The notes: a model not told the origin generated them from the letters alone. Shown: positions 7,990 through 12,235, counted from the first letter of the stretch. The stretch is DNA of 32,000 nucleotides from Candidatus Iainarchaeum sp. (GCA_028710695.1 JAQTTP010000001.1:150001-182000), one strand, 5' to 3'. Translations and numbers: made by a program.

Positions 7990-8775
7990 ATGATAGACTA
8001 TTCTTATGATATTGAAATGGTAAAAGGAAGAATCGAAAAAGGAATAAGAACAAACAATAGAAAAGATGATGAATACAGAGAAATAAAGATTGAGACTGGA
8101 ATATTGAAAAATGCAGCAGGATCGGCAAAAGTAACTTTAGGAAAGACAATGATCTATGCTGGAACTAAGTTGGAAATAGGCACACCTTATCCTGATACCC
8201 CTGAAGAAGGTGGAATCACAGTTGGTGTAGAATTGAGCCCAATTGGTGCTCCAGAGTTTTATGCTGGTCCTCCAAGCGAAACATCAATTGAATTATCAAG
8301 AGTTGTTGATAGGGGTATAAGAGAAGCAAAAACAATAGATTTCAAGAAGCTTTTGCTTGTTCCCAAGGAGAAAGCTTGGTTTGTATATGTAGATATTTAT
8401 GTTATGAACCACGATGGGAATTTGTTCGACGCATGCCAAATAGCAGCAATGGCGGCTTTGAAAACAACAAAAATACCAAAAATAGATGAAGATTTTAACC
8501 AAATTAAAGGGGAATATGCAGGAAATTTGAAGCTAGAAAAGCTGCCTGTGCTTAACACATATTCAAAGATAAGTAATAAAATAATTTTGGACCCTGATTT
8601 AAATGAAGATTATGCAACAGAGGCAAGATTATCTATTGCTATAGATGATAATTTGAACATTTGTGCATTACAAAAAGGTGAAAAAGGGTTCTTCACACAA
8701 GAAGAATTGAAAGAGATAATAAAAACATCAAAGAAGAAGTATAAAGAAATGAGGAAAATTTTTGAAAAGTTATAA
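7990..8775 (+). CDS. rrp42: Exosome complex component Rrp42 (RNase PH-like)
   Basis: RIEKGIRTNNRKDDEYREIKIETG...AGSAKVTLGKTMIYAG is the Rrp42 pattern. It sits in the conserved position after rrp41. Confidence 0.9.
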   Translation: MIDYSYDIEMVKGRIEKGIRTNNRKDDEYREIKIETGILKNAAGSAKVTLGKTMIYAGTKLEIGTPYPDTPEEGGITVGVELSPIGAPEFYAGPPSETSIELSRVVDRGIREAKTIDFKKLLLVPKEKAWFVYVDIYVMNHDGNLFDACQIAAMAALKTTKIPKIDEDFNQIKGEYAGNLKLEKLPVLNTYSKISNKIILDPDLNEDYATEARLSIAIDDNLNICALQKGEKGFFTQEELKEIIKTSKKKYKEMRKIFEKL

Positions 8776-8786
8776 AAGGTGAAAAC

Positions 8787-9173
8787 ATGACAATATCATC
8801 CGGATTTGGATCAAAATATGGAAGAAAAATAAGAAGAAAATACGATAATGTTACACAAGGCTATAAATTCAAGAAACTAGTTTGTCCTTTTTGTGGAATG
8901 AAGAAAGTGACAAGAGAAGCTTCAGGGATATATGAATGCCTTTACTGTAAAAAGAAATTTGCTGGTGGAGCATACGAAGTTGAAACAAGAATAGGAAAAA
9001 CAATAAGAAGCTCAATGGCAAAGAAAAATGTGAAAGAATTAGAAGTATTTTTGGAAGAAGAAACAAAGATAGAAGATAAAGGCGAAAAAGAAGAAAAGGC
9101 TGAAAAAGAGGAAAAAGTAGACAAAAAAGAAAAAAAGCAAAAAAAAGAAAAAGCTAAAGAGAGTGAGGAATAA
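8787..9173 (+). CDS. rpl37ae: Ribosomal protein L37Ae (eL43) with a K/E-rich C-terminal extension
   Basis: GSKYGRKIRRKYDNV...CPFCGMKKVTREASGIYECLYCKKKFAGGAY is the L37Ae zinc ribbon. About 55 extra residues follow, rich in K/E (EDKGEKEEKAEKEEKVDKKEKKQKKEKAKESEE). Confidence 0.9.
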   Translation: MTISSGFGSKYGRKIRRKYDNVTQGYKFKKLVCPFCGMKKVTREASGIYECLYCKKKFAGGAYEVETRIGKTIRSSMAKKNVKELEVFLEEETKIEDKGEKEEKAEKEEKVDKKEKKQKKEKAKESEE

Positions 9174-9310
9174 TGGTTGTCTATAAATGCATAAGATGCG
9201 GGGCAGAATTCGAGTCTTTAATAGATGGTGAAGTAAGATGCCCACAATGCGCCTTTAGAGTTATAGAGAAAAAGAGACAAAGATTTGCAAAGTCTGTAAA
9301 AGCAATATAA
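9173..9310 (+). CDS. rpoP: DNA-directed RNA polymerase subunit P (Rpo12)
   Basis: Hand translation, 45 aa: MVVYKCIRCGAEFESLIDGEVRCPQCAFRVIEKKRQRFAKSVKAI. It has a CxxC...CxxC zinc ribbon and the typical VKAI C-terminus. Its ATG overlaps the L37Ae stop (TAATG). It is too short for the ORF track. Confidence 0.85.
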   Translation: MVVYKCIRCGAEFESLIDGEVRCPQCAFRVIEKKRQRFAKSVKAI

Positions 9311-9332
9311 CTCTCTTTTTTTATTGATTTTT

Positions 9333-9803
9333 ATGACTAATCTGATTACAACTTCAAGAAAGCCAGGAAGAAACCTGAGAAAGTTTGTTAGGCAGGTTTG
9401 TCCAATCTTTAATACTAAATATTTTGTTAGAGGGAAAACATCAGTAAAAGAACTTGCAGAATATTTGGAGTATGAAGGATATGACAAGTTGATTGTTGTA
9501 TCTGAATTTAAAGGAAATCCGGGATCTTTGATAATTTACACAAGCAAAAATGGATTTTTTAAACAAGAAAGAAAATACAAAATTACTTATTACAAGCTTT
9601 CTGAGAAGAAGATGCAGTTCCCTAAATATGAAATAGAATTGGAAGACAAAGAAAACAAAGACTTTTTCAAATATCTGGGGACAGAAAATGAAAAAGTAGA
9701 CGCAAAGATAATTGATGATAAGGGAATAATAAAAATAAAAAAAGGAAAAGATACATATCTGAGTTTTAAGGTAGAAAAAGTGGTGGAAAAATGCCTGAAA
9801 TGA
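9333..9803 (+). CDS. Brix/Imp4-domain ribosome biogenesis protein
   Basis: MTNLITTSRKPGRNLRKFVRQ is a typical archaeal Brix N-terminus, and the gene is in the conserved position after rpoP. ATG 9333 is preferred over TTG 9324. Confidence 0.75.
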   Translation: MTNLITTSRKPGRNLRKFVRQVCPIFNTKYFVRGKTSVKELAEYLEYEGYDKLIVVSEFKGNPGSLIIYTSKNGFFKQERKYKITYYKLSEKKMQFPKYEIELEDKENKDFFKYLGTENEKVDAKIIDDKGIIKIKKGKDTYLSFKVEKVVEKCLK

Positions 9804-10015
9804 AGATTTTTATAACTGAGAATTTTAAAGATATATATAAAATAATAACTCAGGAGAAAGAGATTAATAGTAGAACAAAAACTGAGTTCAACCTGAAGAA
9901 AGACGGGTTGGAGATAGTAACAAAAGCAAAAGATTATGTTGCTTTAAGAGCAAATATGAACTCTCTTTTGCAGAAGCTTGCATTAATAAATAATACTTAT
10001 TCGGAGAAGAGGTGA
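9791..10015 (+). CDS. pcc1: KEOPS complex subunit Pcc1
   Basis: TEFNLKKDGLEIVTKAKDYVALRANMNSLLQKLALI aligns by eye with Pyrococcus Pcc1 (EIDFKLEGKKIILDIKATDSSALRGTVNSYLRWIKAAI). The gene is in the conserved superoperon position. Confidence 0.75.
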   Translation: MPEMKIFITENFKDIYKIITQEKEINSRTKTEFNLKKDGLEIVTKAKDYVALRANMNSLLQKLALINNTYSEKR

Positions 10016-10022
10016 ATAATTT

Positions 10023-10376
10023 ATGGATCAAAAAGAAATAATGGAATTTAATAACTATAGTAACCAGATGAATATGCTTAATGCTCAAACTATGAACATA
10101 AAAGGAATGATGGATAAAATAAAAGAAAACATAGATGAGTTAAATAAAAGCAAGGAAACACATGGTTACAAGAATTTGGGATTAGTTTTGATAAAGAAAC
10201 CAAAGGCAGATTTGGTAAAAGAGTTAGAAGAAACTAAAAAGTCTTTAGACTTGAGATTAAAGACTATTGATAAGCAAGAGAAGATTGTTTCAGCAAAGTT
10301 AGAAGAACTTAAAGCTAAGTTCGAGTTAGAACAAAAGAAACAAGAAAAAGATGCTGAAAAGAAGGATAAGAAATAA
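10023..10376 (+). CDS. pfdB: Prefoldin subunit beta
   Basis: 117-aa coiled coil-hairpin-coiled coil layout with central YKNLGLVLIKKPKADLVKELEE. Conserved position after pcc1. Confidence 0.85.
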   Translation: MDQKEIMEFNNYSNQMNMLNAQTMNIKGMMDKIKENIDELNKSKETHGYKNLGLVLIKKPKADLVKELEETKKSLDLRLKTIDKQEKIVSAKLEELKAKFELEQKKQEKDAEKKDKK

Positions 10377-10431
10377 TTAAGATAAGAGTTTAGAAGTAAG
10401 GTATATTAATCCCTTACTCTATTTTTATATT

Positions 10432-11223
10432 ATGCCTAGAAAACAGCCACAAAAAATTGCAACAAAAAAACAATATGTTGCCCCTAAATGTATAGAACTC
10501 AGGGGGAAAGATGTAAGTATTTGGCAGACTAAAGAACGTAGAGATATGGTTCAGTGGAAATTAGAAACTGATCCACCAGATATTGCTAGAAGGCGGTTGG
10601 CACTTCTTGCTAAAGGTACAAAAAAATGCCTTGGGCAAAAAAATGTGACTATTTTTGTGAAAAATGTAACTCAAAAAGAATTAGATATAATTGATAAGTT
10701 AAGGAAAGCTGGAATATTTACAGAAATGCCTTTTGATTTTAAATTAAAAACTGCCGGCGGTCGTGAACGTGGGCCAATGGGCTTTTTAAATGCTGGTGAA
10801 TCTTTTGCCAAGGCTACGATAAGGGCAAATAATGCAAAATTAAGAGCCATGTTTATGCCAGTAGCTGACATTATTGGGCAGATGCATGCTTTAGGTGTAG
10901 AGCACGGGCATGTGACTACAAGCAACGTTCACATCCATAATGGGCGCTTGTGTTTAGTTGATTTTTCAATAGCTGAACAACACTTAGTTGACTGGAATTC
11001 TGTGGGTAGTATCTATAATGCATTTGTAAGAGATTATACTACTAGAATAACAAGAAGCAAAAGCCAATATGCAAATATGACTTTTTGTAAAGAATTTTTC
11101 AGAAGAATGATTTCTCATTATCCTACATCAGAACAAATAAAAAGTGAATTAATTAATAAACTGAATAATGATTTGGAAAATTATAGATCCAGGGATTTAT
11201 TGCCTTATCATGGGCCATGTTAA
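10432..11223 (+). CDS. Bud32/RIO-like atypical protein kinase homologue lacking the catalytic-loop Asp
   Basis: IGQMHALGVEHGHVTTSNVHIHNGRLCLVDFSIAE aligns with Bud32 (HxDLTTSN...DGRLYLIDFGLxE). A P-loop-like RGKDVSIW and a KER lysine lie in the N-lobe. The region is visibly richer in G+C than its neighbours. Confidence 0.6.
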   Translation: MPRKQPQKIATKKQYVAPKCIELRGKDVSIWQTKERRDMVQWKLETDPPDIARRRLALLAKGTKKCLGQKNVTIFVKNVTQKELDIIDKLRKAGIFTEMPFDFKLKTAGGRERGPMGFLNAGESFAKATIRANNAKLRAMFMPVADIIGQMHALGVEHGHVTTSNVHIHNGRLCLVDFSIAEQHLVDWNSVGSIYNAFVRDYTTRITRSKSQYANMTFCKEFFRRMISHYPTSEQIKSELINKLNNDLENYRSRDLLPYHGPC

Positions 11224-11234
11224 TTTGTAAGTTT

Positions 11235-11975
11235 TTATATTTTTATTTCTGTTTTTTTACAGTTATCTAGGACAATTAGTTTTGTATTTTTTAACTTCTC
11301 TGAAGCTCTTTCTTTGAGTTTATCCATATTTGTTTTTATTAGAGAAAATGTGTTGTAGTGCATAGGTATTGTTACTTTGGGTTCTGTTTTCCTCGCAAAA
11401 GCAACGAATTCAAAAATATCCATTGTGAAAACTCCTCCGCAAGGAAGGATTGCAATATCTACTTTTACATCTATGTTTTGGTCGTAGGTATCACCTGCAA
11501 AATATATGTCTTTTTCTTGGTATTTTAATAAAAATCCAACACTATACTGGGATTGTGGGTGTTGTGCAGGAACTACGATAACATCCATATTTGCGACCTT
11601 TATTTTATCATCTATTTTTATTGTTCTTTTTTGTGAGTTTTCAAGATCTAATTGGTTTGTTACTAATGATGGTGCAATAACTGGGCAATTATCCCTTTTT
11701 GCTAAAAATTCAACTGCACCTTTGTCAAAGTGGTCAAAGTGCTCGTGGCTAATAAAAATTGCATCTAGTTTTGGAATTGCTTCTTTTGTTATTTCTAATT
11801 TTTCTGCTGCCTCAAAATTATCTGGGGCATTGCTTCCAAAGAAAGGATCAAAAAGAATTGTTTTGTCAAAGAAGTTAATTAGAATAAAGCTGTGCCAGTA
11901 TTTTGTAATATAAATCTTGTCTTGTGTGCACTCCTCTACTTTTTTAGGCATTAACTTTTTTAGAAGTTGAACCAT
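11235..11975 (-). CDS. Metallo-beta-lactamase-fold hydrolase
   Basis: ISHEHFDHFD is the HxHxDH motif, with later His/Asp ligand candidates (PAQHP, FAGDT, PMHYNTF). The start is uncertain (ATG at 11975 or 11951; the ORF-track start at 12008 is TTG). TTTTTAAAG about 25-33 nt upstream of 11975 suggests a leaderless start. Confidence 0.75.
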   Translation of the reverse strand: MVQLLKKLMPKKVEECTQDKIYITKYWHSFILINFFDKTILFDPFFGSNAPDNFEAAEKLEITKEAIPKLDAIFISHEHFDHFDKGAVEFLAKRDNCPVIAPSLVTNQLDLENSQKRTIKIDDKIKVANMDVIVVPAQHPQSQYSVGFLLKYQEKDIYFAGDTYDQNIDVKVDIAILPCGGVFTMDIFEFVAFARKTEPKVTIPMHYNTFSLIKTNMDKLKERASEKLKNTKLIVLDNCKKTEIKI

Positions 11976-12235
11976 AAAATATATTGGATGGAATAGCTTT
12001 AAAAACAACTTAGTTAATAATTATCATACTATAATGCCTTTTTTCACCGTTTTTACCTTAAATTACTTCGAAAATAGCCTCCCAAAGCCCCCTTTGCCAA
12101 AAGGTAACTTTTTTAAAGCAATGTCCTTCTATAATAATATATCTAATCACAAAGCAAGTTTTTCCGAACCGAAACTTCTTTAAGATTAAGACATTTCATA
12201 AGATAATTGGATTTTTTGATAAAAGGTGAATAAAA

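Follow-up and report, generated by a model that had tools for sequence, protein, structure and literature searches.

We analysed a 32,000-nucleotide stretch of DNA from Candidatus Iainarchaeum sp. (GCA_028710695.1, JAQTTP010000001.1:150001-182000), referred to below as the window, with attention to the open reading frame (ORF) at positions 10432-11223. With a modest preference, we consider its product to be a functional protein that stands alone and belongs to an uncurated family of minimal kinase-fold proteins. This family is distinct from Bud32, although related, and its members with organism names come from DPANN-type archaea. The archaeal DNA of the window has a low G+C content (33%), and the source genome, 0.9 Mb in 27 contigs, is 86% complete. 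The ORF and the features around its start are the following.

10432-11223, plus strand: kinase-fold ORF, 263 aa, ATG start, isoelectric point (pI) 9.8, basic N-terminal tail
9791-10015, plus strand: pcc1 (Pfam Pcc1, 30.8 bits)
10023-10376, plus strand: pfdB, prefoldin beta (Pfam Prefoldin_2, 49.1 bits), after pcc1 and directly upstream of the ORF
10396-10431, plus strand: upstream element, a 6-bp hairpin (10396-10401 with 10412-10417) with the A/T-rich loop TATATTAAT, then a T-run and the ATG

The ATG start is backed by an N-terminus common to homologues at 70-72% and 51-54% identity, and the first 25 residues contain seven Lys or Arg and one acidic residue. As the initial annotation had stated, the gene comes after pcc1 and pfdB. 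The order of genes upstream of it is rrp42, rpl37ae, a Brix-type gene, pcc1 and pfdB, and on its other side the ORF is convergent with a gene for a metallo-beta-lactamase-fold (MBL) hydrolase. The pcc1-pfdB pair, which closes the archaeal exosome/proteasome superoperon, is to be taken as context only. About 45 nt on the 5′ side of the ATG are nearly identical to the corresponding locus of a same-genus genome, where synonymous divergence in coding DNA is 0.5-1.0. The hairpin and T-run may terminate the upstream operon, act as promoter of the kinase-fold gene, or do both, and their conservation suggests that this gene is separated from the transcript of the superoperon.

Catalytic loop, predicted fold and family

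The residues and motifs of the ORF that correspond to kinase active-site elements, and those characteristic of its C-lobe, lie at the following positions.

10903-10926, plus strand: catalytic loop H158-G-H160-V-T-T-S-N165, with the His160 codon (10909-10911) at the catalytic Asp position and Asn165 as the metal-binding Asn
10960-10968, plus strand: D177-F-S, the DFG equivalent, with Asp177 retained and Ser in place of Gly
10660-10680, plus strand: candidate Lys-Glu pair, K77 (10660-10662) at the end of predicted beta3 and E83 (10678-10680) at the start of an alphaC-like helix
10987-11124, plus strand: C-lobe motifs W188, F198-x-x-D201-Y202 and Y230-P231, family-specific, taken from column conservation and hhalign columns

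The product had been annotated as a Bud32-like homologue with His for the catalytic Asp and DFS for DFG, Asn165 and Asp177 being kept, and this description is borne out by three independent alignments (HMMER against PDB kinases, NCBIfam Bud32 models, and profile-profile comparison with Bud32), all of which put His160 on the catalytic Asp. Among PDB sequences searched with HMMER, the ORF aligned to the HRDxxxxN...DFG of many kinases and to the HGDLTTSN of plant Bud32, and the family profile aligned alike with KSR, MELK and M. jannaschii Bud32. The NCBIfam Bud32 models matched the ORF at an E-value of 5e-10. Comparison of profiles with 23 archaeal Bud32 proteins gave a probability of 99.1% (E 1e-18), with His160 on the invariant Asp and the match running from alphaC onward only. 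Judged from these alignments, the pairing of His160 with the catalytic Asp is far beyond chance. The same profile-profile comparison aligned the putative hinge-like motif M-x-F and the following Gly122 to I-x-M-x-x-I-x-G of Bud32. According to hhalign, D201 corresponds to the Asp of Bud32 alphaF 'AVDL' and Y230-P231 to Bud32 'GY'.

No residue before ORF position ~78 was aligned in the comparison with the Bud32 profile, where the match begins at Bud32 column 46. Two N-terminal elements that had been proposed for the ORF did not hold up. The RGKDVSIW segment, described as a P-loop-like stretch, is not aligned to the GAEA loop of Bud32 and lies in the N-terminal ~77 residues without a profile match, and the KER lysine is not aligned to the Bud32 beta3 Lys, K34 being variable within the close subfamily alignment. 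K77 in IFVK is probably a better candidate for the beta3 lysine than the KER lysine, considering the order of strand and helix in the predicted structure.

This structure, predicted by AlphaFold2 with a 63-sequence alignment (pLDDT 94.4, pTM 0.89), is a bilobal kinase fold with the catalytic-loop Asn (N165) and the metal-binding Asp (D177). The model has helices at 34-44 and 49-60, and a strand at 73-80, containing K77, which directly precedes an alphaC-like helix at 81-92 with E83. Foldseek returned kinases only from the PDB, 1253 PDB kinase matches being found at E<=1e-3. The top length-normalised TM-scores belonged to Bud32/PRPK (8k20_B, 0.50/0.61; 6wqx_C, 0.49/0.55) and WaaP (6dfl_A, 0.49/0.52), and WaaP was the first match by E-value. 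The modelled protein is a kinase fold, predicted to be nearest to minimal atypical kinases and close to none of them.

The family is rare: a phmmer search of 1.84 billion representative proteins gave 84 relatives at E<=1e-3, nearly all of them 210-280 aa in length. Column counts given here were taken from an 83-sequence alignment, those for position 160 and the residue after DF from 79 family rows, and the identity value and Pfam scans from the 63-sequence alignment. The family signature is H-x-H-P-H-x-x-N ... D-F-(K/S), the loops taking the form H-(G/N/R/K)-H-P-H-x-x-N and being followed by (I/V)-D-F-(K/S)-x-A. Position 160 was His in 65 rows, Asp in 9 and Asn in 3. D177 was present in all 83 sequences, N165 in 82, H158 and G122 in 80 each, H152, D201 and Y230 in 78 each, F178 in 76, W188 in 75 and F198 in 74, at a mean column identity of only 17%. 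The classical C-lobe catalytic constellation is the best-conserved part of this fast-evolving family, with His replacing Asp.

Other positions set apart the subfamily to which the ORF belongs. Position 162 is His in 63 of 83 sequences and Thr in the ORF and its subfamily; after DF, Lys (DFK, 41 rows) and Ser (DFS, 17 rows) are the common residues, Ser being that of this subfamily. At position 77, where the ORF has Lys, there are 39 Arg, 14 Lys and 30 other residues, and the alphaC Glu position 83 is Glu in 25 sequences and Gln in 17. From its sequence, the subfamily appears to be a Bud32-like variant of the His-x-His/Arg77 pattern of the family.

The family profile scored the ORF, which is itself in the alignment used for building that profile, at 213 bits over profile positions 13-229, with the C-lobe motifs present. 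No dedicated model for the family was found in Pfam or NCBIfam. A Pfam scan of 63 members gave weak matches only, to Kdo (37/63), Pkinase, APH, ABC1 and RIO1 (8/63), and arch_bud32 was weakly matched by 61 of the 63 (best E 1.5e-12). Public labels of the members are 'hypothetical protein', 'lipopolysaccharide kinase InaA family protein', 'Bud32' and 'serine/threonine protein kinase'. Members with organism names belong to Candidatus Diapherotrites / Iainarchaeum, except for one distant member from Altiarchaeota, and the longer members (300-457 aa) showed no additional Pfam domain. No paper on this protein turned up; the family motif string was not found in a relevant sense in the literature, and the KEOPS papers make no mention of such paralogues.

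Selection on the gene was assessed against its same-genus orthologue, with which it has 71% amino acid identity and a dN/dS of 0.19. Its neighbours are 82-98% identical to their counterparts at that locus (five of six at 89% or more), with dN/dS of 0.01-0.10. Within the compared block (positions 7990-12008 of the window against the same-genus locus L029), none of the other genes, those for Rrp42, L37Ae, Brix, Pcc1, PfdB and the MBL hydrolase, evolves nearly as fast as the kinase-fold gene. Thus the gene evolves faster than its neighbours yet is clearly under purifying selection.

In maximum-likelihood analysis, for which the RIO-like gene on contig C18 of the source genome served as outgroup, the tree separated a Bud32 clade (support 93) from a family clade (support 94), and grouped the ORF with its two closest homologues (support 99). 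All 14 Bud32 sequences of the tree have Asp at the catalytic position and DFG. Inside the family, position 160 has changed among Asp, His and Asn at least 10 times, and the Asp160 members are nested. Lys77 occurs in 5 of the 9 Asp160 members, and an acidic residue after DF likewise in 5 of 9, against 2 of 65; the His160 members mostly have Arg77, and Lys or Ser after DF. This linked pattern of positions 77, 160 and post-DF hints at coordinated remodelling of the active site, as far as can be read from the sequences, the independent supported pairs being too few for a test. Because the family signature is conserved, purifying selection acts on the gene and the predicted fold is of high confidence, the active site looks remodelled and maintained, not decayed.

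Proposed function and its alternatives

If the ORF encodes a functional stand-alone family member, the cleft would still bind Mg-nucleotide through Asn165, Asp177 and Gly122. The protein would then act as an enzyme or switch that depends on ATP, and its His160 may take the role of the catalytic Asp as a general base, a hydrogen-bond partner or possibly a transient phosphate acceptor. RIO kinases work via a phospho-enzyme intermediate, and are a precedent for the phospho-His idea. The N-lobe would have been rebuilt, with no Gly-rich loop, two extra helices, and Lys77 here as against Arg in the largest share of members, and RNA or another anionic partner would suit a protein of pI 9.8 with a basic tail. 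Repeated interchange of Asp, His and Asn at position 160 fits a common hydrogen-bonding or acid-base role, as a pattern of sequence. Whether such a protein carries out real catalysis or binds nucleotide without turnover would seem an about even choice. The replacement of Asp by His throughout the family, together with this repeated interchange, amounts to a natural experiment on the need for a 'catalytic base'.

Several observations weigh against this reading. The Gly-rich loop is absent, and the beta3 Lys (position 77) and alphaC Glu (position 83) are poorly conserved family-wide. Two members of the ORF's own subclade carry Asn160 (HGN), and therefore an ionisable residue at position 160 is not strictly needed there. 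The gene neighbourhood also gives no clue to a substrate.

An alternative that we consider possible, although not probable, is that the ORF encodes a non-catalytic pseudokinase, a scaffold or switch that binds a ligand or nucleotide, whose His, Asn and Asp serve the binding of a nucleotide, a metal or an anionic partner. Besides the missing Gly-rich loop, the unconserved alphaC Glu and the mostly Arg or non-basic residues at position 77, this explanation agrees with the absence of the catalytic Asp from 70 of 79 family rows, with the His/Asn interchange within the ORF's subclade, and with fast evolution and paralogue expansion, which are common for binding modules. However, conservation of H158, H160, H162, N165, D177 and F178 in a family of 17% mean column identity would be unusual for a pure scaffold, and the Asp160 members are nested within the family instead of standing apart from it. 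The initial suggestion of a 'pseudokinase or ATPase-only' protein concerns, in any case, a whole conserved family and not a single decayed gene.

By its sequence the ORF falls within the definition of a pseudokinase, the HRD Asp being His160, the DFG Asp being present and the Lys possibly being K77, but this definition does not establish inactivity. Pseudokinases with a substituted HxD Asp include JAK JH2 (HGN) and HER3 (HRN), which keep the Asn and the DFG Asp, and some Asp-substituted pseudokinases still bind ATP and are weakly active. Those of the JAK JH2/HER3 type are eukaryotic signalling domains in which the Gly-rich loop and beta3 Lys are intact, whereas here the His is conserved through an entire archaeal family, mostly together with an Arg and a further His.

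A reading that we regard as unlikely is a new catalytic class in the kinase fold, in which the conserved His, usually accompanied by another His two residues on and by Lys after DF, would take up the gamma-phosphate to form a phospho-His intermediate or would serve a different nucleotide-dependent reaction. If true, active DPANN enzymes would use a chemistry undescribed for Bud32, RIO and Kdo-type kinases.

We give very little probability to a KEOPS-associated Bud32 paralogue, an idea raised by the initial annotation, in which the protein would bind to Kae1/Pcc1 and regulate t6A synthesis while being inactive or having ATPase activity only. The ORF lies one gene away from pcc1, Bud32 is its closest curated family, and HGHVTTSN resembles the HGDLTTSN of Bud32. 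Both proteins are basic and have a minimal kinase fold of ~200-260 aa, Bud32/PRPK being represented by TP53RK, TIGR03724 and the structures 8k20_B, 6wqx and 8unk_B. Homology extends from alphaC through the C-lobe (hhalign 99.1%), and Bud32 and the family have in common the motifs L..aG(I/V).(V/T)E.P, M-x-(F/Y)...G and (M/L)H...(I/V)xHG, the metal Asn, (I/V)DF, the alphaF Asp and a late Tyr. The T-T-S of the Bud32 loop is retained in the ORF's subfamily.

None of the features tested as defining for Bud32 was found in the ORF. The ORF reaches 39.2 bits on arch_bud32 (TIGR03724), for which the cut-off is 125, and covers model positions 38-133 only. Its HGHVTTSN/DFS contrasts with HGD(L)xxxN/DFG(L), the family at large having His for the catalytic Asp and DFS or DFK for DFG. 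In the N-lobe, the GAEA Gly-rich loop and the K..R..K.YR block with the beta3 Lys (G7 A8 E9 A10, K21, R23, K26, Y28) are unmatched; the ORF also has two additional helices at its N-terminus, and a basic tail. At the other end, the E.RGRY tail of Bud32 (E184, R186, R188, Y189) is unaligned in the family, and the ORF ends in ...PYHGPC. In KEOPS structures this C-terminal tail of Bud32 contacts Kae1.

The search of the source genome for the KEOPS kinase and its partner, which the initial annotation had left to be done, found both of them on other contigs: a canonical Bud32 with HGDLTAQN and DFG on contig C5 (175 bits, the cut-off being 125), and Kae1 on contig C23 (239 bits). Because canonical Bud32 and Kae1 are encoded elsewhere, the score is low, and the Bud32 loop and tail are unmatched, the ORF is not the KEOPS kinase, that is, not the tRNA-modifying Bud32 of the cell. 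In contrast to the single Bud32 of the genome, the family is multi-copy and patchy and forms a separate clade; it occurs in only 32 of the phylum's 215 genomes, while Bud32-length matches occur across most of the 215. Adjacency to pcc1 is confined to the genus, other members lying in unrelated contexts, and pcc1-pfdB is the end of a conserved superoperon, separated from the ORF by the hairpin and T-run. Cgi121, whose absence could be counted in favour of a KEOPS role, was not detected in the 86%-complete genome (15.5 bits, below the cut-off), which is uninformative specifically for this ORF. Automatic 'Bud32' labels on family members would inflate counts of KEOPS subunits.

On contig C5, immediately upstream of the canonical Bud32 gene and co-directional with it, we also observed a 181-aa ORF with no Pfam match (L001:2079-2621, minus strand). 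Given that the genome has no Cgi121 match, this ORF could be a divergent Cgi121 candidate.

The reading implied by some database labels, an ordinary kinase for small molecules (Kdo/WaaP/InaA or APH type), is also a poor prospect. The Pfam Kdo model (PF06293) matches residues 81-184 just over its gathering threshold (26.3 against 21.3 bits) and is matched by 37 of 63 members. WaaP (6dfl_A), with a TM-score of ~0.5, has a similarly compact C-lobe and was the first Foldseek match by E-value, and the many divergent paralogues would suit diverse small substrates. Small-molecule kinases and UbiB typically have a His two residues past the catalytic one (H-x-[D/H]-x-H-x-x-N), and this too counts for such an assignment. 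However, the Pfam Kdo model also matches true Bud32 proteins and is non-discriminating for that reason. The catalytic Asp of Kdo/WaaP/APH enzymes, in the motif H-x-D-x-x-x-x-N, is missing from the ORF. The KdkA and RfaY models score far below their cut-offs, KdkA (NF002475) giving 14.4 bits against 142, and 61 of 63 members obtain higher scores from Bud32 models. There is no lipopolysaccharide (LPS) context either; to our knowledge, archaea of this kind are without lipopolysaccharide, which counts further against the assignment.

RIO kinases (Rio1/Rio2) are likewise small atypical kinases with an archaeal representation, and the ORF copy adjoins ribosome-biogenesis genes. The Rio1 model NF041310 gave 14.9 bits on the ORF against a cut-off of 480, and the RIO-like gene of the source genome (C18) has HGDLSEYN / IDMS, unlike the HGHVTTSN/DFS of the ORF.

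A decaying pseudogene or recent foreign gene can practically be dismissed, since the non-canonical catalytic residue is a His conserved family-wide, the orthologue is intact with a dN/dS of 0.19, the model has a pLDDT of 94, the third-position G+C is like that of the neighbours in spite of two locally G+C-rich lines, and the gene has the same position in the sister species.

The composition deserves a further remark, as raised G+C had been noted for this gene. Two 60-nt lines, at 10741 and 10861, do have 47% and 48% G+C, but this is unremarkable in the window, where 31 of 533 such lines reach 45% or more. Overall G+C of the ORF is 35%, and its third-position G+C of 24% is inside the 21-33% of its neighbours. 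Horizontal transfer, from which a paralogue had been proposed to derive, is not supported in view of this third-position G+C and of conserved synteny, and three paralogues are present in the same genome.

Paralogues and genomic settings

At E<=1e-20, family matches were found in 32 of 215 species genomes of the phylum (23 of 79 genera), looser thresholds also catching ordinary Bud32. The family is accessory, its distribution is patchy, and a genome may have as many as four to six matches. The source genome has four copies, three with HGH and one with HAD. The three paralogues of the ORF (232-257 aa, 22-30% identity over the aligned parts; two HGH/DFS and one HAD/DFE) are located as follows.

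C19:69229-69912, minus strand: family paralogue
C11:33019-33663, minus strand: family paralogue
C19:33849-34493, plus strand: family paralogue

All three lie amid unrelated housekeeping genes (ScpA; GNAT and GTPase; TrmB, RNase HII and RtcB). A very small DPANN genome thus retains four divergent kinase-fold copies in which the active site is consistently altered, and this suggests a maintained function hidden by the labels 'hypothetical', 'Bud32' and 'LPS kinase InaA'.

The arrangement of Pcc1, PfdB, the ORF and the hydrolase recurs only in the same-genus genome. Around 18 other family loci of the phylum, none of the window's neighbours was found within the ~1.5 kb of flank examined. Other members are placed between UbiA and RadA, or beside a DNA ligase, GatB, TrmB, RNase HII/RtcB, ScpA or GNAT gene. 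An all-against-all comparison of the flanking ORFs of 27 loci gave no partner conserved in more than three loci, and the sole neighbour reaching three is a ScpA-like gene in genomes of one taxonomic family.

Two themes considered for these settings were rejected. For DNA repair, a ligase or RadA adjoined members in three contexts with no recurrence in the phylum loci, and in the source genome the genes for ligase and RadA are distant from the family paralogues. A defence or phage origin was likewise set aside, since PADLOC and PHROGs gave weak generic kinase matches only.

Tandem family pairs were observed in other genomes of the phylum, at L011 (G002:C144:723-1343 and 1432-2079) and at L034 (5540-6337 and 6732-7358), which points to local duplication as a route of family expansion. 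Beside an orthologue of a C19 paralogue, a Logan contig carries a giant gene with a product of at least 1576 aa (L031:3-4730, minus strand).

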